Source: Escherichia coli (GTDB lineage Bacteria > Pseudomonadota > Gammaproteobacteria > Enterobacterales > Enterobacteriaceae). Taken from it: DNA of 64,000 bases. The notes beneath the pieces were generated by a model. The model saw only the letters and a list, made by a program, of their open reading frames with translations. It had not been told where the DNA came from and did no database searches. Made by a program: the position numbers and the translations under genes. The stretch lies in the NCBI RefSeq assembly GCF_046105845.1, contig NZ_CP151004.1; one strand, 5' to 3'. This document shows, in pieces, positions 1-16,675 of this stretch (within the stretch, counting starts at the first letter, position 1; each line of letters begins with the position of its first letter).

Positions 1-156
1 GCTAAATTAGCCACCGAACTGGCCTTGCAGGGGGCAGCAGGCAATATTGATCCGCGTGCCAGCCACTGTTTTATGCCGACGTTAGTGCGTCGTCATTCTG
101 TCGCAACGCGCCAGAATGCGGCGGCGATCACTAACTCAACAAATCTGGCGATGTAA
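1..156 (+). CDS. galS: 3' end of galS (LacI-family repressor), partial
   Basis: Open frame running to TAA at 154-156 translates ...[22 protein letters not shown]; sits immediately upstream of mglB as in E. coli. Confidence 0.75.
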
Positions 157-166
157 CCGCTTTCAA
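151..166 (+). promoter_or_regulatory. GalR/GalS operator of the mgl promoter
   Basis: ATGTAACCGCTTTCAA matches the GTGNAANCGNTTNCAC consensus at 14 of 16 positions; centred 18 bp upstream of the CRP site; overlaps the galS stop codon. Confidence 0.5.
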
Positions 167-168
167 TC

Positions 169-184
169 TGTGAGTGATTTCACA
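169..184 (+). promoter_or_regulatory. CRP binding site of the mglBAC promoter
   Basis: TGTGA-GTGATT-TCACA, both half-sites perfect; a TATGAT -10 hexamer at 206-211 is at class II spacing. Confidence 0.7.
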
Positions 185-435
185 GTATCTTAACAATGTG
201 ATAGCTATGATTGCACCGTTTTAACGTTGTAACCCGTATGTAACAGTGAATAATCACTTTCACCGAGGTAATAGCGTCATAACAACAATTAAAGCCGTTT
301 TCTGGAGCGTTACCGGGCATGGAAGAACGAATTTTAAAAAGTGAGCTTCGGCGTTCAGTAACACTTCATTAACTCTACTGCCCCGCCGAGCATTTATCTC
401 AAGCACTACCCTGCATAAGAAAAACCGGAGATACC

Positions 436-1434
436 ATGAATAAGAAGGTGTTAACCCTATCTGCTGTGATGGCCAGCATGTTATTCGGTGCCGCTGCACA
501 CGCTGCTGATACTCGCATTGGTGTAACAATCTATAAGTACGACGATAACTTTATGTCTGTAGTGCGCAAGGCTATTGAGCAAGATGCGAAAGCCGCGCCA
601 GATGTTCAGCTGCTGATGAATGATTCTCAGAATGACCAGTCCAAGCAGAACGATCAGATCGACGTATTGCTGGCGAAAGGGGTGAAGGCACTGGCAATCA
701 ACCTGGTTGACCCGGCAGCTGCGGGTACGGTGATTGAGAAAGCGCGTGGGCAAAACGTGCCGGTGGTTTTCTTCAACAAAGAACCGTCTCGTAAGGCGCT
801 GGATAGCTACGACAAAGCCTACTACGTTGGCACTGACTCCAAAGAGTCCGGCATTATTCAGGGCGATTTGATTGCTAAACACTGGGCGGCGAATCAGGGT
901 TGGGATCTGAACAAAGACGGTCAGATTCAGTTCGTACTGCTGAAAGGTGAGCCGGGCCATCCGGATGCAGAAGCACGTACCACTTACGTGATTAAAGAAT
1001 TAAACGACAAAGGCATCAAAACTGAACAGTTACAGTTAGATACCGCTATGTGGGATACCGCTCAGGCGAAAGATAAGATGGACGCCTGGCTGTCTGGCCC
1101 GAACGCCAACAAAATCGAAGTGGTTATCGCCAACAACGATGCGATGGCAATGGGCGCGGTAGAAGCACTGAAAGCACACAACAAGTCCAGCATTCCGGTG
1201 TTTGGCGTCGATGCGCTGCCAGAAGCGCTGGCGCTGGTGAAATCCGGTGCACTGGCGGGCACCGTACTGAACGATGCTAACAACCAGGCGAAAGCGACCT
1301 TTGATTTGGCGAAAAACCTGGCCGATGGCAAAGGTGCGGCTGATGGCACCAACTGGAAAATCGACAACAAAGTGGTCCGCGTACCTTATGTTGGCGTAGA
1401 TAAAGACAACCTGGCTGAATTCAGCAAGAAATAA
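436..1434 (+). CDS. mglB: Galactose/glucose ABC transporter periplasmic binding protein
   Basis: 332-aa ORF with signal peptide; recognisable MglB sequence; followed by mglA and mglC. Confidence 0.97.
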
Positions 1435-1442
1435 GACTGATT

Positions 1443-1474
1443 GGGCGCAGTCGTTTGCTGCGCCCTTATTGTAT
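1443..1474 (+). terminator. Intercistronic hairpin between mglB and mglA
   Basis: GGGCGCAG-tcgtttg-CTGCGCCC stem-loop followed by a T-rich tract. Confidence 0.4.
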
Positions 1475-1494
1475 GGCCAACAAGGTAAAATTAT

Positions 1495-3015
1495 ATGGTC
1501 AGCTCAACGACTCCGTCTTCCGGAGAATACTTGTTGGAAATGAGCGGTATCAACAAGTCTTTTCCTGGTGTTAAGGCACTTGATAACGTTAATTTAAAAG
1601 TCCGGCCACATTCTATCCATGCATTAATGGGGGAAAACGGCGCAGGAAAATCAACATTATTAAAATGCCTGTTTGGTATTTATCAAAAAGACTCCGGCAC
1701 CATTTTATTCCAGGGTAAAGAGATCGATTTCCATTCTGCCAAAGAAGCGCTGGAAAATGGTATTTCGATGGTACACCAGGAGTTAAACCTGGTATTACAA
1801 CGTTCGGTGATGGATAACATGTGGCTGGGGCGATATCCCACCAAAGGCATGTTTGTCGATCAGGACAAAATGTACCGCGAAACCAAAGCGATTTTTGATG
1901 AACTGGATATTGATATCGATCCGCGTGCGCGCGTCGGCACATTATCCGTTTCGCAAATGCAGATGATCGAAATCGCCAAAGCGTTTTCCTATAACGCGAA
2001 AATTGTGATTATGGATGAACCGACTTCTTCGTTAACCGAAAAAGAAGTTAATCATCTGTTTACTATTATTCGTAAATTAAAAGAGCGCGGCTGTGGTATT
2101 GTTTATATCTCACATAAAATGGAAGAAATCTTCCAGTTATGTGATGAAGTTACCGTATTGCGCGACGGTCAGTGGATCGCCACTGAACCGCTGGCAGGAC
2201 TGACGATGGACAAGATCATCGCCATGATGGTTGGGCGTTCTCTTAACCAACGTTTCCCTGACAAAGAAAACAAGCCGGGCGAAGTGATTCTTGAAGTGCG
2301 TAACCTGACGTCGCTGCGCCAGCCGTCGATTCGCGATGTCTCGTTTGATCTGCATAAAGGGGAGATCCTCGGTATTGCCGGTCTGGTGGGGGCGAAACGT
2401 ACCGATATTGTTGAGACGTTATTTGGTATTCGCGAGAAATCGGCTGGCACTATTACGTTGCACGGCAAAAAGATCAATAACCATAATGCCAACGAAGCCA
2501 TAAACCACGGATTTGCACTGGTAACTGAGGAGCGCCGCTCAACGGGAATTTATGCCTATCTGGATATCGGTTTTAACTCGTTAATTTCCAATATCCGCAA
2601 CTATAAAAACAAAGTTGGCTTGCTGGATAACTCGCGGATGAAAAGCGATACCCAGTGGGTGATTGACTCGATGCGGGTAAAAACACCGGGTCATCGGACG
2701 CAAATTGGTTCGCTCTCCGGTGGTAATCAGCAAAAGGTGATTATTGGTCGCTGGCTACTAACGCAACCAGAAATATTAATGCTCGATGAACCGACGCGCG
2801 GTATTGATGTCGGGGCGAAGTTTGAGATCTATCAGTTAATTGCCGAACTGGCGAAGAAAGGCAAGGGGATTATTATTATCTCCTCTGAAATGCCTGAGTT
2901 GTTAGGGATAACAGACCGTATTCTGGTTATGAGCAATGGTCTCGTTTCCGGAATTGTCGATACAAAAACAACAACGCAAAACGAAATTCTGCGTCTTGCG
3001 TCTTTGCACCTTTAA
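1495..3015 (+). CDS. mglA: Galactose ABC transporter ATP-binding protein (tandem ABC domains)
   Basis: 506-aa ORF with two Walker A motifs (GENGAGKST and a second ABC domain). Confidence 0.97.
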
Positions 3016-3030
3016 GATTAGGGGCTTCCC

Positions 3031-4041
3031 ATGAGTGCGTTAAATAAGAAAAGTTTTCTTACTTACCTGAAAGAGGGCGGTATTTACGTCGTTCTTTTAG
3101 TTTTGCTGGCAATTATTATTTTCCAGGACCCAACATTTTTAAGTCTGTTGAACTTAAGTAATATTCTCACCCAGTCATCGGTGCGTATTATTATCGCGCT
3201 CGGTGTGGCAGGGTTAATTGTCACCCAGGGGACCGACCTTTCTGCAGGTCGCCAGGTGGGGCTGGCGGCAGTAGTAGCGGCGACGTTATTGCAGTCCATG
3301 GATAACGCCAACAAAGTGTTCCCGGAAATGGCGACGATGCCGATTGCGCTGGTTATTCTGATTGTCTGTGCCATTGGTGCGGTGATCGGTTTGATCAACG
3401 GCCTGATTATCGCTTATCTCAACGTGACGCCGTTCATTACCACGCTCGGCACGATGATCATCGTCTATGGCATCAACTCGCTCTATTACGACTTTGTCGG
3501 GGCGTCGCCAATTTCTGGTTTTGACAGTGGCTTCTCTACCTTTGCTCAGGGCTTTGTCGCGCTGGGGAGTTTCCGTCTCTCTTACATCACCTTCTACGCG
3601 CTGATTGCGGTGGCGTTCGTCTGGGTGTTGTGGAACAAAACCCGCTTCGGCAAGAACATTTTTGCTATCGGCGGTAACCCGGAAGCGGCGAAAGTTTCTG
3701 GTGTCAACGTCGGCCTGAACCTGCTGATGATCTACGCGTTGTCTGGTGTGTTCTATGCCTTCGGCGGGATGTTAGAAGCCGGACGTATCGGCTCTGCCAC
3801 CAACAACCTCGGCTTTATGTATGAGTTGGATGCTATCGCGGCGTGCGTGGTGGGCGGCGTATCGTTCAGCGGCGGTGTGGGGACGGTGATTGGTGTGGTG
3901 ACCGGGGTGATTATTTTTACCGTCATCAACTATGGCCTGACGTACATCGGCGTAAACCCATACTGGCAGTACATCATCAAAGGGGCGATTATTATCTTCG
4001 CCGTGGCGTTGGATTCACTGAAATACGCGCGTAAGAAGTGA
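3031..4041 (+). CDS. mglC: Galactose ABC transporter permease
   Basis: 336-aa polytopic membrane ORF directly after mglA. Confidence 0.96.
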   Translation: MSALNKKSFLTYLKEGGIYVVLLVLLAIIIFQDPTFLSLLNLSNILTQSSVRIIIALGVAGLIVTQGTDLSAGRQVGLAAVVAATLLQSMDNANKVFPEMATMPIALVILIVCAIGAVIGLINGLIIAYLNVTPFITTLGTMIIVYGINSLYYDFVGASPISGFDSGFSTFAQGFVALGSFRLSYITFYALIAVAFVWVLWNKTRFGKNIFAIGGNPEAAKVSGVNVGLNLLMIYALSGVFYAFGGMLEAGRIGSATNNLGFMYELDAIAACVVGGVSFSGGVGTVIGVVTGVIIFTVINYGLTYIGVNPYWQYIIKGAIIIFAVALDSLKYARKK

Positions 4042-6579: not shown

Positions 6580-6772
6580 GTGATCTTCCTTAATGCTATG
6601 AGTAATTAAGGCGAACGCTAAATAAATATTGCGTGCTGATATTAAGGCTATGCGCGTGGGGAAATTTAAACTGTGAAAGGATTCACAAATAGCTGCGGTT
6701 CAGAATGTTATATCCGCAGCTTATTGAGTGAAGTAATAATTATTCTCAATAATTAACAGAAAAGAGAAAATA

Positions 6773-10024: not shown

Positions 10025-10226
10025 TTAATTCGTAAAACGTGCTACCGATCACATTAAGAAATCAGCGCTTATTTTTTCGCTCCCGGGCATTACGCAATGA
10101 GCAGCGAACTCAGGCATACATCAAGCATAGAGAGGGATTGCAGTTTGCAGCAATCCCTCTTTGCAGACCTTTAATCCGCTGACCATAGGCGCTAACATAG
10201 CGCCTCATTTTTTTGCGGGTGATGAT

Positions 10227-11174
10227 ATGCGTGTGTTACTGGCTCCGATGGAGGGTGTACTCGACTCTCTGGTGCGTGAATTGCTGACCGAAGTTAACGA
10301 CTACGATCTGTGCATCACCGAGTTTGTCCGCGTGGTGGATCAACTGCTGCCGGTAAAAGTCTTTCATCGCATTTGCCCTGAACTACAAAACGCCAGCCGG
10401 ACACCATCCGGTACGCTGGTGCGCGTGCAGTTGTTAGGCCAGTTCCCACAATGGCTGGCAGAGAACGCCGCCCGTGCAGTTGAGTTAGGTTCCTGGGGCG
10501 TGGATCTCAATTGCGGCTGCCCGTCGAAAACGGTTAACGGTAGCGGCGGTGGGGCGACGTTACTCAAAGATCCTGAACTCATCTATCAGGGTGCAAAAGC
10601 GATGCGCGAAGCTGTACCGGCGCATTTGCCCGTCAGCGTAAAAGTGCGTCTGGGCTGGGACAGCGGTGAGAAGAAATTTGAAATCGCCGATGCGGTGCAA
10701 CAGGCTGGTGCTACAGAGCTGGTGGTGCATGGGCGGACGAAAGAGCAGGGTTACCGCGCGGAGCATATTGACTGGCAGGCGATTGGCGAGATTCGCCAGC
10801 GGCTGAATATTCCGGTGATTGCCAACGGTGAAATCTGGGACTGGCAGAGTGCGCAACAATGCATGACGATCAGCGGATGCGACGCAGTGATGATTGGTCG
10901 CGGGGCGCTCAATATTCCCAACCTGAGCCGGGTGGTAAAATATAACGAACCGCGAATGCCGTGGCCGGAGGTGGTTGCTTTGCTGCAAAAATATACTCGT
11001 CTGGAAAAGCAGGGCGATACCGGGTTATATCACGTAGCGCGGATTAAACAGTGGTTGAGTTATTTGCGTAAAGAATACGATGAAGCAACGGAATTATTTC
11101 AGCATGTTCGGGTGTTGAATAATTCCCATGATATTGCAAGGGCTATTCAGGCAATTGATATCGAGAAACTCTAA
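10227..11174 (+). CDS. dusC: tRNA-dihydrouridine(16) synthase DusC
   Basis: Start chosen at [11 protein letters not shown] to give 315 aa; Dus-family TIM-barrel sequence. Confidence 0.93.
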
Positions 11175-11220
11175 GAAACCATAGTGATGTTTTTTGACAA
11201 TGTGTTAGCTCTTTATCAAT

Positions 11221-11452
11221 AGGCCGCACGGTTGTTTGGTGGCGTCAAAATCGCCGAGGCGTTCCCTGAAGGCCGGGGCAGCCCACATGGATGTGGGCTG
11301 AGGGCGCGTTTTACAGGGATGTTACCTCGCGCCCGACCCGGTAGCCGTAAGGGATAAGCCGAGGGCACCGCGCAGCGGCGATTTTGTTCGCCAGAGCCCG
11401 GGGGTGCAGGGGGCGGCGGCGATTGGCCGCCCCCTGCGCGCTCCTTGCGCCA
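11221..11452. repeat. GC-rich hairpin-dense intergenic element of unknown identity
   Basis: About 230 bp with perfect stems (CAGCCCACAT/ATGTGGGCTG at 11279-11300; GCAGGGGGCGGC/GCCGCCCCCTGC at 11406-11437) and a long-range inverted repeat (11243-11258 vs 11377-11393). Confidence 0.4.
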
Positions 11453-11546
11453 GTGATTATATGAAGCAATGCACATGACAGGAGCGCAACAGGATGAGAG
11501 ACTGAAATATTCTCGTTATTTTCGGATCTGATGACATTAATTAATT

Positions 11547-11630
11547 TTAAAATATCATCTTAAATACGCCAGTCACCACCAGTAGCCCAATCAGGAAAAT
11601 AATCAATACAGCCCAGAGTATAATTTTCAT
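11547..11630 (-). CDS. yohP: Small membrane protein YohP (27 aa)
   Basis: Hand translation gives MKIILWAVLIIFLIGLLVVTGVFKMIF*, a single-transmembrane small protein; not in the ORF track because of its size. Confidence 0.7.
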   Translation of the reverse strand: MKIILWAVLIIFLIGLLVVTGVFKMIF

Positions 11631-11853
11631 TGGCGTTCCTTTATTTGTGAGTGCTGAATAAGTATAGGAAAAAACGAAGCCCTTTGCCGCTATCCATAAA
11701 CTATTAAGATAAATCGGAAGATATCATTCACTTAGTGTATATTTTTCTGGATATGTCGTTTTATTGCCACTGATGTATTGCCACGCGAAACTAAAAAATA
11801 TATCGCAACACACGGTAATCTCCGCGCACCTTTTCTTACCTGATTATTCCCCC

Positions 11854-13290
11854 ATGAATCGTGATTCTTTTTATCCCGCCATCGCCTGTTTTCCGCTGTT
11901 ACTGATGCTGGCCGGGTGTGCGCCTATGCATGAAACCCGCCAGGCGTTAAGCCAGCACACGCCCGCTTCACAAGTTGACACCGCATTACCCACGGCGCTG
12001 AAAAATGGTTGGCCAGACAGCCAATGGTGGCTGGAGTATCACGATAATCAACTCACTTCCTTAATTAATAACGCACTACAGAACGCACCGGATATGCAGG
12101 TGGCTGAACAACGCATTCAACTGGCTGAAGCCCAGGCGAAGGCAGTTGCCACTCAGGATGGTCCGCAGCTCGACTTTTCTGCGGATATGGAGCGACAAAA
12201 AATGTCGGCAGAAGGCTTAATGGGGCCGTTTGCTCTGAACGATCCGGCCGCAGGTACGACCGGTCCGTGGTACACCAACGGTACTTTTGGCTTAACGGCG
12301 GGCTGGCATCTCGATATCTGGGGAAAGAATAGGGCGGAGGTAACTGCTCGCCTGGGAACGGTTAAAGCACGGGCGGCGGAACGCGAGCAAACCCGCCAAT
12401 TGCTGGCTGGCAGCGTAGCCCGCCTGTACTGGGAGTGGCAAACCCAGGCGGCGTTAAACACTGTCTTACAGCAAATCGAAAAAGAGCAGAACACCATTAT
12501 CGCCACCGATCGCCAGCTATATCAGAACGGGATTACTTCTTCAGTTGAAGGTGTGGAAACCGATATTAATGCCAGCAAAACCCGGCAGCAGCTCGACGAT
12601 GTCGCGGGGAAAATGAAAATTATTGAGGCACGGTTAAGCGCACTTACAAATCACCAGACAAAGGCATTGAAGCTTAATCCGGTCGCGTTGCCGAAAGTGG
12701 CAAGCCAGCTTCCTGATGAACTGGGGTACTCCTTACTGGCGCGGCGGGCAGATTTGCAGGCGGCGCACTGGTACGTTGAGTCATCGTTAAGCACTATTGA
12801 TGCGGCAAAAGCGGCATTTTATCCTGACATCAACCTGATGGCCTTCCTGCAACAGGATGCGTTGCACTTAAGCGATCTGTTCCGTCATTCCGCGCAGCAA
12901 ATGGGCGTTACGGCAGGCCTGACGCTACCCATTTTCGATAGTGGTCGTCTTAACGCCAACCTCGATATCGCAAAAGCCGAAAGCAACTTGTCTATCGCCA
13001 GCTACAACAAAGCGGTGGTTGAAGCGGTGAATGACGTGGCGCAGGCAGCCAGTCAGGTTCAGACACTGGCGGAGAAAAACCAGCATCAGGCGCAAATTGA
13101 GCGCGATGCCTTGCGTGTAGTAGGTCTTGCGCAGGCGCGCTTTAACGCGGGCATCATTGCGGGTTCCCGCGTCAGCGAAGCCAGAATCCCCGCGCTGCGT
13201 GAGCGGGCCAATGGCCTGTTATTGCAAGGGCAGTGGCTGGATGCCTCCATTCAACTCACTGGTGCGTTGGGCGGGGGTTACAAACGTTGA
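11854..13290 (+). CDS. mdtQ: Outer-membrane efflux lipoprotein MdtQ (OprM/NodT family), apparently intact
   Basis: Start chosen at MNRDSFYPAIACFPLLLMLAGC (lipobox) to give 478 aa; continuous frame. Confidence 0.88.
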   Translation: MNRDSFYPAIACFPLLLMLAGCAPMHETRQALSQHTPASQVDTALPTALKNGWPDSQWWLEYHDNQLTSLINNALQNAPDMQVAEQRIQLAEAQAKAVATQDGPQLDFSADMERQKMSAEGLMGPFALNDPAAGTTGPWYTNGTFGLTAGWHLDIWGKNRAEVTARLGTVKARAAEREQTRQLLAGSVARLYWEWQTQAALNTVLQQIEKEQNTIIATDRQLYQNGITSSVEGVETDINASKTRQQLDDVAGKMKIIEARLSALTNHQTKALKLNPVALPKVASQLPDELGYSLLARRADLQAAHWYVESSLSTIDAAKAAFYPDINLMAFLQQDALHLSDLFRHSAQQMGVTAGLTLPIFDSGRLNANLDIAKAESNLSIASYNKAVVEAVNDVAQAASQVQTLAEKNQHQAQIERDALRVVGLAQARFNAGIIAGSRVSEARIPALRERANGLLLQGQWLDASIQLTGALGGGYKR

Positions 13291-13342
13291 TGATATGCGC
13301 CTTCTATACTTAACGTTTATTCAGCGTTAAGTGGAGAACTCG

Positions 13343-14104
13343 ATGGCACAGGTCGCGATTATTACCGCCTCCGATTCGGGGATCGGCAAAGAGTGCGCGT
13401 TATTACTGGCGCAGCAGGGGTTTGATATTGGTATTACCTGGCACTCTGATGAAGAAGGGGCAAAAGATACCGCGCGTGAGGTGGTTAGCCACGGCGTACG
13501 TGCGGAGATCGTGCAGCTGGATCTCGGCAATCTACCAGAAGGGGCACTGGCGCTGGAGAAACTCATTCAACGGCTGGGGCGTATTGATGTGCTGGTGAAT
13601 AATGCGGGCGCAATGACCAAAGCGCCGTTTCTTGATATGGCTTTCGATGAGTGGCGCAAGATTTTTACCGTTGATGTCGATGGTGCATTTTTATGCTCGC
13701 AAATTGCTGCCCGCCAGATGGTGAAACAAGGGCAGGGTGGTCGCATCATCAACATTACGTCGGTGCATGAACATACGCCGTTGCCGGATGCCAGCGCCTA
13801 CACAGCCGCTAAACATGCGCTCGGCGGGTTAACCAAAGCGATGGCGCTGGAGCTGGTCAGGCATAAGATTTTGGTGAATGCGGTTGCACCTGGGGCGATC
13901 GCCACGCCAATGAACGGCATGGATGATGGCGACGTGAAGCCCGGCGCGGAGCCTTCGATTCCCTTGCGGCGTTTTGGCGCAACGCATGAGATTGCCAGCC
14001 TGGTGATGTGGCTTTGTTCGGAGGGCGCAAATTACACCACTGGGCAGTCGTTGATAGTGGATGGCGGCTTTATGTTGGCGAATCCGCAGTTCAACCCAGA
14101 ATAG
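13343..14104 (+). CDS. yohF: Short-chain dehydrogenase/reductase YohF
   Basis: Start at MAQVAIITASDSGIGK gives 253 aa; SDR glycine-rich motif and YxxxK. Confidence 0.9.
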   Translation: MAQVAIITASDSGIGKECALLLAQQGFDIGITWHSDEEGAKDTAREVVSHGVRAEIVQLDLGNLPEGALALEKLIQRLGRIDVLVNNAGAMTKAPFLDMAFDEWRKIFTVDVDGAFLCSQIAARQMVKQGQGGRIINITSVHEHTPLPDASAYTAAKHALGGLTKAMALELVRHKILVNAVAPGAIATPMNGMDDGDVKPGAEPSIPLRRFGATHEIASLVMWLCSEGANYTTGQSLIVDGGFMLANPQFNPE

Positions 14105-14144
14105 CGCAGTGAGGTGCGTGGTTATTTCATTGGGTAATATTTGG

Positions 14145-14226
14145 GTAGGCATGATAAGACGCACAAGCGTCGCATCAGGCATGGTGCACCGGATGTCGGA
14201 TGCGGCGCGAACGCCTTATCCTAGGC
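14145..14226. repeat. REP/BIME palindromic units between convergent yohF and yohD
   Basis: Two canonical REP units (GCCTGATGCGACGCTTGTGCGTCTTATCATGCCTACC on the minus strand; CGGATGCGGCGCGAACGCCTTATCC). Confidence 0.7.
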
Positions 14227-14233
14227 AATGGTT

Positions 14234-14812
14234 TTACGCCTGATTATCCGGCTTTTTCTTCCCGCGTCGTTTCAGCCACCAGCGCACGCCTACCACCAGA
14301 ACCACGACCAGAATCAACCAGACCCAGTGTTTCAAATGCTGGTCGAGATTGTGCAACCACGGCGCAATCACCTGACCACCAGCGTAACCGATAGTTGTAA
14401 AAATCAACGCCCAGGCAAATGCGCCAAGGATATTCAGTGGCAGAAAGATTTTCGGCGGCAGCTGGCTGGCACCAATCAGCGTCGGGCCAATCACCCTAAA
14501 GCCATACATAAAACGCGTACCAATGACAAACAGATACGGATGGCGTTGGATAAGTTTCTGCGCCCGCTCAATTTTATCCTGATGTTTCGAGAAACGGCGT
14601 AATAGCTTGCCGCCAAAGCGCCGCCCGCACAGATAAAGCACCTGGTCGCCAATCATGCCGCCAAGCGCCACAGAAAGTACCACCAGCGGGAACTTTAATA
14701 GCCCCTGATGTGCCGCAACGCCTCCCAGCAAAGTCACGGTTTCACCTTCCGCCAGGCTACCGATCACCAGCGCGGCATAACCATATTGTGAGATGAGTGT
14801 ATTGAGATCCAT
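14234..14812 (-). CDS. yohD: DedA-family inner-membrane protein YohD
   Basis: Start at MDLNTLISQYGY gives 192 aa; DedA/SNARE-associated family sequence. Confidence 0.88.
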   Translation of the reverse strand: MDLNTLISQYGYAALVIGSLAEGETVTLLGGVAAHQGLLKFPLVVLSVALGGMIGDQVLYLCGRRFGGKLLRRFSKHQDKIERAQKLIQRHPYLFVIGTRFMYGFRVIGPTLIGASQLPPKIFLPLNILGAFAWALIFTTIGYAGGQVIAPWLHNLDQHLKHWVWLILVVVLVVGVRWWLKRRGKKKPDNQA

Positions 14813-14981
14813 AGGCCAGTCTGTCTCCCTTTGGTTGCCTGTAAGCATACACCCTGTAAATCATTCACGCTGAAAAAGGACGTACATCAGACGGTGCAAA
14901 TTACATGAGCGAACAAAAAATAATCACAAGCTGACTTATACTTGAACTGTCAGGTTCATGAACTCACAACAAGGGGGCGGT

Positions 14982-15569
14982 ATGAGCCATGTCTGGGGAC
15001 TGTTTTCCCATCCCGATCGTGAAATGCAGGTGATTAATCGCGAAAACGAAACGATTTCTCATCACTACACCCACCACGTTTTGCTGATGGCGGCGATTCC
15101 GGTGATTTGCGCCTTCATTGGCACTACACAGATTGGCTGGAATTTTGGCGATGGCACTATCCTGAAGTTATCCTGGTTTACCGGACTGGCGCTGGCTGTC
15201 CTGTTTTATGGCGTTATGCTGGCTGGGGTTGCGGTGATGGGGCGGGTCATCTGGTGGATGGCGCGCAATTACCCACAGCGTCCGTCACTTGCGCACTGCA
15301 TGGTCTTCGCGGGCTACGTTGCAACTCCGCTGTTTTTAAGCGGTCTGGTGGCGCTTTATCCGCTGGTCTGGTTGTGTGCGCTGGTCGGCACGGTGGCGCT
15401 GTTTTACACCGGCTACCTGCTGTATCTCGGTATTCCGAGCTTCCTGAATATCAACAAAGAGGAAGGCCTTAGCTTCTCCAGTTCGACGCTGGCGATTGGC
15501 GTGCTGGTACTGGAAGTGCTGCTCGCCCTTACCGTTATACTATGGGGTTACGGTTATCGTTTGTTCTAG
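14982..15569 (+). CDS. yohC: Yip1-family inner-membrane protein YohC
   Basis: Start at MSHVWGLF gives 195 aa; polytopic membrane protein. Confidence 0.85.
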   Translation: MSHVWGLFSHPDREMQVINRENETISHHYTHHVLLMAAIPVICAFIGTTQIGWNFGDGTILKLSWFTGLALAVLFYGVMLAGVAVMGRVIWWMARNYPQRPSLAHCMVFAGYVATPLFLSGLVALYPLVWLCALVGTVALFYTGYLLYLGIPSFLNINKEEGLSFSSSTLAIGVLVLEVLLALTVILWGYGYRLF

Positions 15570-15742
15570 AAAGTTCTTTTGTGTTGCATTGCTGGCGTAA
15601 ATGTCAGCAATGCAGCATTTCCTCACGATTCTCCTTTGACGATCGCACTTTTTGCTCGTTATGATGGCGTCGCTAGCCTCAGTAAATCCTTACTCCGGCG
15701 GTGCGCAACCCGTGCGCGTGAACCACTATCTGAATGCTCATC

Positions 15743-16675
15743 ATGCCGAAATTTCGAGTTTCTTTATTTAGCCTGGCCCTGATGCTGGCTGTGCCTTTTG
15801 CACCGCAGGCCGTTGCGAAAACGGCAACCGCTACCACCGCTTCACAACCGGAAATTGCCTCCGGTAGCGCGATGATTGTTGATCTGAATACCAACAAAGT
15901 GATCTATTCGAACCACCCGGATCTGGTGCGTCCGATTGCGTCTATCAGCAAATTAATGACCGCGATGGTTGTGCTGGATGCGCGACTGCCGCTGGATGAA
16001 AAACTAAAAGTGGATATCAGCCAGACGCCGGAGATGAAAGGGGTCTATTCGCGCGTACGACTGAATAGCGAAATCAGCCGTAAAGATATGCTGTTGTTGG
16101 CGCTGATGTCTTCAGAAAACCGCGCGGCGGCAAGCCTTGCGCACCATTATCCCGGTGGTTACAAAGCCTTTATTAAGGCGATGAATGCGAAAGCGAAATC
16201 GCTCGGAATGAACAACACGCGCTTTGTTGAACCGACCGGATTGTCGGTGCATAACGTTTCAACCGCCCGTGACTTAACCAAACTGCTCATTGCCAGCAAA
16301 CAATATCCGTTGATCGGGCAGTTAAGTACTACCCGGGAAGATATGGCAACCTTCTCTAACCCGACGTATACGCTGCCGTTCCGCAATACTAACCATCTGG
16401 TGTATCGCGATAACTGGAATATTCAGTTAACCAAAACCGGCTTTACCAATGCGGCGGGCCATTGTCTGGTGATGCGTACGGTTATCAATAATAAACCGGT
16501 GGCGCTGGTAGTGATGGACGCGTTTGGCAAATATACCCATTTTGCCGATGCCAGCCGCCTGCGTACCTGGATTGAAACCGGTAAAGTGATGCCTGTTCCG
16601 GCAGCAGCGTTGAGCTATAAAAAACAAAAAGCCGCCCAGATGGCGGCGGCGGGGCAGACGGCACAGAACGATTAA
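15743..16675 (+). CDS. pbpG: D-alanyl-D-alanine endopeptidase (PBP7)
   Basis: Start at [11 protein letters not shown] gives 310 aa; signal peptide and SISK (SxxK) active-site motif. Confidence 0.93.

Follow-up and report, generated by a model that had tools for sequence, protein, structure and literature searches.

The mglBAC promoter of Escherichia coli: a class II CRP site abutted by a Gal operator whose overlap with the galS stop codon is confined to few lineages

The DNA between galS and mglB raises the question of how galactose repressors act on a promoter in which a Gal operator runs across the stop codon of the upstream gene and touches the CRP site of the downstream one, and whether that overlap has any meaning of its own. 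We analyzed this region within a window of 64,000 nucleotides of E. coli (RefSeq assembly GCF_046105845.1, contig NZ_CP151004.1), and all coordinates refer to that window unless a locus is named. Positions 1-4041 comprise the 3' end of galS followed by mglB (436-1434), mglA (1495-3015) and mglC (3031-4041). The last 51 codons of galS and its stop codon occupy 1-156 on the plus strand, and its open reading frame ends ...GCG ATG TAA, with the TAA at 154-156. The mglBAC genes form the operon for a high-affinity galactose/glucose ABC transporter. The identities of galS and mglB, as proposed in the earlier note, were confirmed by the RefSeq annotation of a genome with 99.7% identity, which places galS, mglB, mglA and mglC where expected; moreover, a 1.5-kb query found matches in 5425 of 5426 complete E. 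coli genomes (identity of at least 95%), and the RefSeq annotation of the best matches gave exactly these four genes. The region holds the mglBAC promoter, which CRP activates and the galactose repressors switch off. This promoter is already known from the literature and from regulatory databases, together with its CRP and Gal operator sites and the long leader, and the discovery value of describing them again is small.

All distances in the promoter depend on the position of the transcription start. A genome-wide mapping in E. coli K-12 (Kim et al. 2012, Table S1, PMC3415461) contains an mglB start whose 5'UTR measures 218 nt; the K-12 51-mer listed for it ('-50 + TSS', CTGTGAGTGATTTCACAGTATCTTAACAATGTGATAGCTATGATTGCACCG) is identical to window 168-218. 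Therefore, the start is exactly the G at 218 (plus strand), which leaves a leader of 218 nt before the ATG of mglB at 436. The earlier note had placed the start at about 218 and had expected a leader of roughly 218 nt, to be judged by comparison with mapped mglB starts and to be given up if these lay far away; the mapped start falls on the predicted base, and the sequence-only prediction was exact. In Table S1 (PMC3415461) this start is supported by only 6 reads, and the same table holds a second mapped 5' end (9 reads, 5'UTR of 140 nt), whose 51-mer ends at window 296 (plus strand) and which may mark either a secondary start or processing of the transcript. Position 296 sits in an A-rich stretch, and the best -10 candidate nearby, AACAAT (284-289), is weak. 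A massively parallel reporter study that uses the EcoCyc start describes a mutation at '+30' that creates a consensus -10 and a new start; the sole nearby hexamer one change away from TATAAT is AATAAT at 249-254, and since it is the only candidate for '+30', the EcoCyc start lies within 1-2 nt of 218. A further source gives the mglB 5'UTR as 'about 250 bp' (PMC3119520). In the leader alignment the G of the start and the TTT after it are conserved, and at the far end of the leader the columns of the Shine-Dalgarno sequence GGAG (427-430) and the mglB ATG (436-438; together 427-438, plus strand) are invariant or nearly so.

Upstream of this start, both CRP pentamers of the core TGTGA-N6-TCACA are perfect (TGTGAGTGATTTCACA, 169-184). 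By hand count, 13 of the 22 positions in the full site (166-187, ATCTGTGAGTGATTTCACAGTA) agree with the textbook 22-bp consensus, and the word 'perfect' applies to the pentamers only. Measured from the mapped start, the centre of the CRP site at 176.5 lies at -41.5, the class II position, and that of the Gal operator at 158.5 lies at -59.5, the two being 18 bp apart as described in the earlier note. The hexamer at the -35 position, CAGTAT (183-188, plus strand), matches TTGACA at one of six positions, which is expected because the promoter depends on an activator at -41.5. The -10 hexamer TATGAT (206-211, plus strand) ends 7 nt upstream of the start, in agreement with the class II spacing proposed from the letters. 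With the TGTGA-N6-TCACA core, a centre at -41.5 from the mapped start, and a weak -35 accompanied by a recognisable -10, the mgl promoter is a class II CRP-dependent promoter. Its dependence on cAMP-CRP is based on the literature: in vitro, without regulators, only galR and galETKM were transcribed, the other promoters of the gal regulon, that of mglBAC among them, being under cAMP-CRP (PMC4073488), mglBp was called CRP-activated in the massively parallel reporter study, and a passage of PMC5207318 cites Zheng 2004 for the CRP dependence of mgl. A second perfect CRP core in the window, TGTGAAAGGATTCACA at 6672-6687, lies in the gap between preT and yeiS, about 93-108 bp upstream of the start codon of preT (minus strand).

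The GalR/GalS operator ATGTAACCGCTTTCAA occupies 151-166. It departs from the consensus GTGNAANCGNTTNCAC only at positions 1 and 16, so that it matches 14 of 16 positions, or 10 of the 12 that are specified, and the TAA of galS (154-156) forms operator positions 4-6; both the score and the overlap are those given in the earlier note. The positions reported as genetically essential in Gal operators are 3, 5, 9 and 15 (PMC5110547), and all of them are kept in the mgl operator (G3, A5, G9, A15), which has the form of the 16-bp hyphenated dyad GTGNAANC.GNTTNCAC together with these bases. By GalR ChIP-chip, an inferred site TTGAAAGCGGTTACA was assigned to mglB (PMC5110547, Table 3), and the mgl operator is the reverse complement of that site, TTGAAAGCGGTTACA(T). 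In Table 1 of the same paper, the operator at the mgl promoter is labelled 'OE (galS)' and an intragenic site 'O (mglB)'; Tables 1 and 3 of PMC5110547 thus disagree, and the naming of the operators in the literature is inconsistent. A general statement that GalR and GalS both bind one common set of operators is found in PMC3119520. Both GalS and GalR use the mgl operator, and the in vivo binding evidence is the GalR ChIP-chip. For GalS specifically, binding at this site is presumed here from established knowledge and by inference. The intragenic site labelled 'O (mglB)' in Table 1 of PMC5110547 corresponds to GTGAAATCCGGTGCAC at window 1237-1252 inside mglB, with two mismatches to the Gal consensus.

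Could the motifs have come together by chance, without a regulatory role? The operator match alone would allow it, as sites with at most 2 mismatches occur 4 times in the window against 3.5 expected, which is not significant. However, the perfect CRP core occurs twice against 0.04 expected, a count of 2 being reached in none of 100 shuffles, and the composite of operator and CRP site (14-23 bp apart) is present once in the window and in none of 200 first-order Markov simulations. Conservation argues against chance most strongly. Among 80 Enterobacteriaceae loci from one MglB scan (Escherichia, Citrobacter, Salmonella, Enterobacter, Klebsiella, Kosakonia, Kluyvera, Buttiauxella, Cedecea and others), the operator pattern ATGTAACCGNTTYCAA at a constant distance from the CRP site, the perfect TGTGA-N6-TCACA and a centre-to-centre spacing of exactly 18 bp were each found in 80/80. 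The -10 hexamer is TATGAT in 78 of them, TATTAT in one and TATCAT in one, with its position kept in all 80, and the bases between the elements and upstream of the operator vary freely. Of 5426 complete E. coli genomes, 5425 contain the 81-bp core module. The operator/CRP/-10 module is thereby documented as invariant across many genera of the Enterobacteriaceae, and together with the GalR ChIP-chip peak and the mapped start at the predicted base these data already refute a chance origin, to which we give practically no weight.

The same loci decide what the overlap with galS means. Only 5 loci, 4 of Escherichia and 1 of Cedecea, have the galS stop codon within the operator; in 73 others the gene terminates earlier, with '...ITN-stop' at 12-15 nt upstream of the operator. 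At the site of the ancestral stop Escherichia has the codon TCA, and the frame continues for six codons, which read STNLAM in the window and STNQAM or close variants in other Escherichia loci, and the extended frame ends at the TAA within the invariant operator half-site TGTAAC. Because Escherichia lost the ancestral galS stop and translation runs on to the TAA of the operator, the overlap is a by-product; it is lineage-specific and incidental, without evident function. Eye-catching as it is, the overlap is therefore an accident of a lost stop codon and no regulatory device.

A different role in galS has also been considered, in which the operator would serve mainly that gene, with the bound repressor acting as a roadblock to read-through and the control of the mgl promoter being secondary. 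The mgl start follows the galS stop after only 62 bp, a terminator scan of the plus strand from 156 to 436 returned no terminator-like site, and the label 'OE (galS)' in Table 1 of PMC5110547 would agree with such a role. On the other hand, the ChIP-chip table of PMC5110547 gives the site to mglB, and the galS promoter has operators of its own. Moreover, the distance of the operator to the CRP site is fixed at 18 bp in 80 of 80 loci whereas that to the galS stop ranges between +3 and -15 nt, which indicates that selection acts on the promoter geometry. We therefore regard a primary function of the operator in galS read-through as very unlikely.

We compared the mgl promoter with related promoters. 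At galE P1, OE is located at -60.5 and CRP at -41.5, and GalR bound at OE represses by arresting RNA polymerase (PMC5110547). The mgl promoter resembles galE P1 in its repressors, in the position of its activator and in having the operator immediately upstream of the CRP site, but the operator-CRP spacing is 19 bp in gal and 18 bp in mgl, so the geometry is not identical. In addition, a second operator of gal, OI, lies at +53.5, and gal also has HU-assisted looping and another promoter, P2 (PMC5110547), whereas mgl has no second full operator nearby: between 167 and 1236 there is no match with at most 2 mismatches that could serve as a second operator within looping distance. A Gal repressosome, with a second operator across the promoter and looping, is accordingly not what is found at mgl. 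The galS promoter is also like mgl in that CTGTAACCGTTTCCAT is followed by TGTGACTCGATTCACG, the operator standing directly before the CRP site (locus L001, 1005-1039), and unlike it in that the centres are 19 bp apart and a second operator, GTGGCAACGGTTTCC, is located inside galS (L001, 1158-1172).

By analogy with GalR at galE P1, we propose a repression mechanism for mgl as part of an overall explanation (a class II CRP-dependent mglBAC promoter, a Gal operator that cancels activation, and control in the leader), to which we assign a probability of about 90%. In this explanation, cAMP-CRP at -41.5 makes up for the absent -35, and GalS or its paralogue GalR binds the single 16-bp operator at -59.5, abutting the CRP site. 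At a class II promoter the C-terminal domain of the alpha subunit of RNA polymerase docks against CRP just upstream of it, which here is operator DNA; since the operator occupies this docking place, the bound repressor may block or mis-position the CRP-dependent recruitment or isomerisation of polymerase, until galactose releases it. The leader of 218 nt then adds post-transcriptional control through pairing with Spot 42, 22-48 nt upstream of the start codon. Cancellation of activation by a LacI-family repressor next to CRP, as proposed here for mgl, has a counterpart in the anti-activation by CytR and CRP, for example at cdd and deoP2. CytR, however, can bind only through protein contacts with CRP and has its place between tandem CRP sites or next to them, whereas GalR and GalS bind a full palindrome alone.

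The main rival to the docking block is plain competition, in which GalS or GalR at 151-166 would exclude CRP from 166-187, and without CRP the promoter would be silent. In its favour, base 166 belongs to both the operator (16 bp) and the CRP site (22 bp), the gap between the operator and the first CRP pentamer is only 2 bp, the distance of the centres at mgl, 18 bp, is shorter by 1 bp than the 19 bp of galE and galS, and the 18-bp spacing is invariant in 80 of 80 loci. Against this, for the nearly identical layout of galE P1 GalR is described as arresting polymerase and not as displacing CRP. We consider competition with CRP plausible, yet on the doubtful side, and we retain the interference of the bound repressor with CRP-dependent polymerase as the preferred mechanism.

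The earlier suggestion that the leader could hold further regulation was right, and such regulation has already been published for Spot 42, UhpU and PhoB. Spot 42 represses mglB by pairing with the 5'UTR, as established by compensatory mutations in Salmonella (PMC5207318), and this control is inferred or accepted for E. coli (PMC8534726). After the Spot 42 sequence had been confirmed against annotated genomes, a duplex of Spot 42 nt 1-25 with window 387-415 (plus strand) was predicted at -24.8 kcal/mol; shuffled leaders, scanned at a coarser step, gave a mean of -16.7 (sd 2.4), and 1 of 300 was as good. In the leader alignment ACTACCCTGCAT is at least 90% conserved, and the core of the pairing region, UACCCUGC (407-414), which pairs with Spot 42 nt 1-8, is nearly invariant. 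The mglB leader thus shows what is looked for in a Spot 42 target, namely conserved complementarity to the unpaired 5' region of the small RNA near the ribosome-binding site. UhpU is reported to interact with the mglB mRNA and to repress it, the report giving no position on the mRNA (PMC12704781).

PhoB was found by ChIP-seq at the direct repeat TGTAACCCGTATGTAACA, 228-245 or +11 to +28 (PMC10294691, Table 1), with a score of 6 and mglB as the associated gene. In a phoB deletion the sigma-70 occupancy was more than 2-fold lower, and the RNA levels of 1,076 versus 772 did not differ significantly (PMC10294691). The repeat has the form TGTAAC-N5-TGTAAC; its second copy (ATGTAAC, 238-244) is conserved across genera, and the first reads TGAAAC outside the aligned Escherichia, Citrobacter and Salmonella loci. 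The PhoB site overlaps a near-promoter within the leader, TTGTAA-16 nt-AATAAT (227-254, plus strand), which was returned by a consensus scan. In mglBp of E. coli K-12, the same locus, the sequences of 168-218, of the operator and of the PhoB site are identical to the window; in 246-296, the only stretch of the leader compared, there are three substitutions (window CACTTTCACCGAGGTAATAGCG, K-12 CACTTTTGCCGAGGTAACAGCG), none of them in a mapped site.

A structured cis-regulatory leader such as a riboswitch or an attenuator was not indicated by any of three analyses. An Rfam scan of 1-1600 with E up to 10 returned four irrelevant weak matches (best E = 0.15), the folding energy of the leader relative to shuffles gave z = -0.31 and thus no extra stability, and RNAalifold predicted only 2 pairs from 52 leaders, which is essentially no consensus structure. 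Two single candidates were also rejected: the hairpin GUGAnUAAUCAC (246-257) is disrupted in several genera, with no compensating change, and for a leader peptide encoded by the 32-codon open reading frame at 246-344 the alignment has indels whose lengths do not divide by three. The inverted repeat CGCTGAC/GTCAGCG encloses the -10 in Enterobacter, Kosakonia, Lelliottia and related genera, and TTTT comes next at +2 to +5 (L017, L027, L030 and many other loci, about 1268-1290 in their own coordinates, equal to window 197-222). As RNA transcribed from galS it would form a terminator-like hairpin, and its left arm varies without compensation. As a general feature of the locus, a galS terminator in the mgl core promoter was rejected, E. 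coli being without the repeat and the scan of 156-436 being empty. The leader also varies in length: in L024 (Citrobacter amalonaticus S646, about 1089-1500) it has 415 nt compared with about 220, with about 195 nt inserted between promoter and mglB, and in L061 and L067 it is about 30 nt shorter.

Several conserved elements of the promoter and leader carry no assigned regulator. The hexamer TTAACA (190-195, -28 to -23) does not change in any of the 80 loci, whereas its neighbouring bases vary, and the published literature searched yielded no regulator assigned to it. As a -35 element it was rejected, with a spacer to TATGAT of only 10 bp and no -10-like hexamer 16-18 bp downstream. The ATGTAAC at 238-244 (+21) repeats the left half-site of the operator; it was rejected as a second operator, the right half being missing. 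Further conserved blocks of the leader are CTGGAGCGTTACC (302-314) and CAYGGAAG (318-325). Three conserved GGA motifs, cuGGAgc and auGGAag within 302-325 and the Shine-Dalgarno ccGGAga at 427-430, have a spacing that recalls CsrA-binding leaders, and a literature search linking CsrA to mglB returned no report. That these conserved extras mark an undescribed DNA-binding regulator, a weak auxiliary contact of GalS or GalR, or an RNA-binding protein (CsrA) on the leader is a speculative reading, which we hold to be rather unlikely.

Elsewhere in the window, a 3-hydroxybenzoate/gentisate cluster is located at about 10200-16300, between yohJ and dusC according to the closest annotated genome, with genes for a LysR-type regulator, mhbT, gtdA, maiA and a monooxygenase. 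A Gal-operator-like site with one mismatch lies at 13874-13889 inside a gene of this cluster and is probably a chance match.
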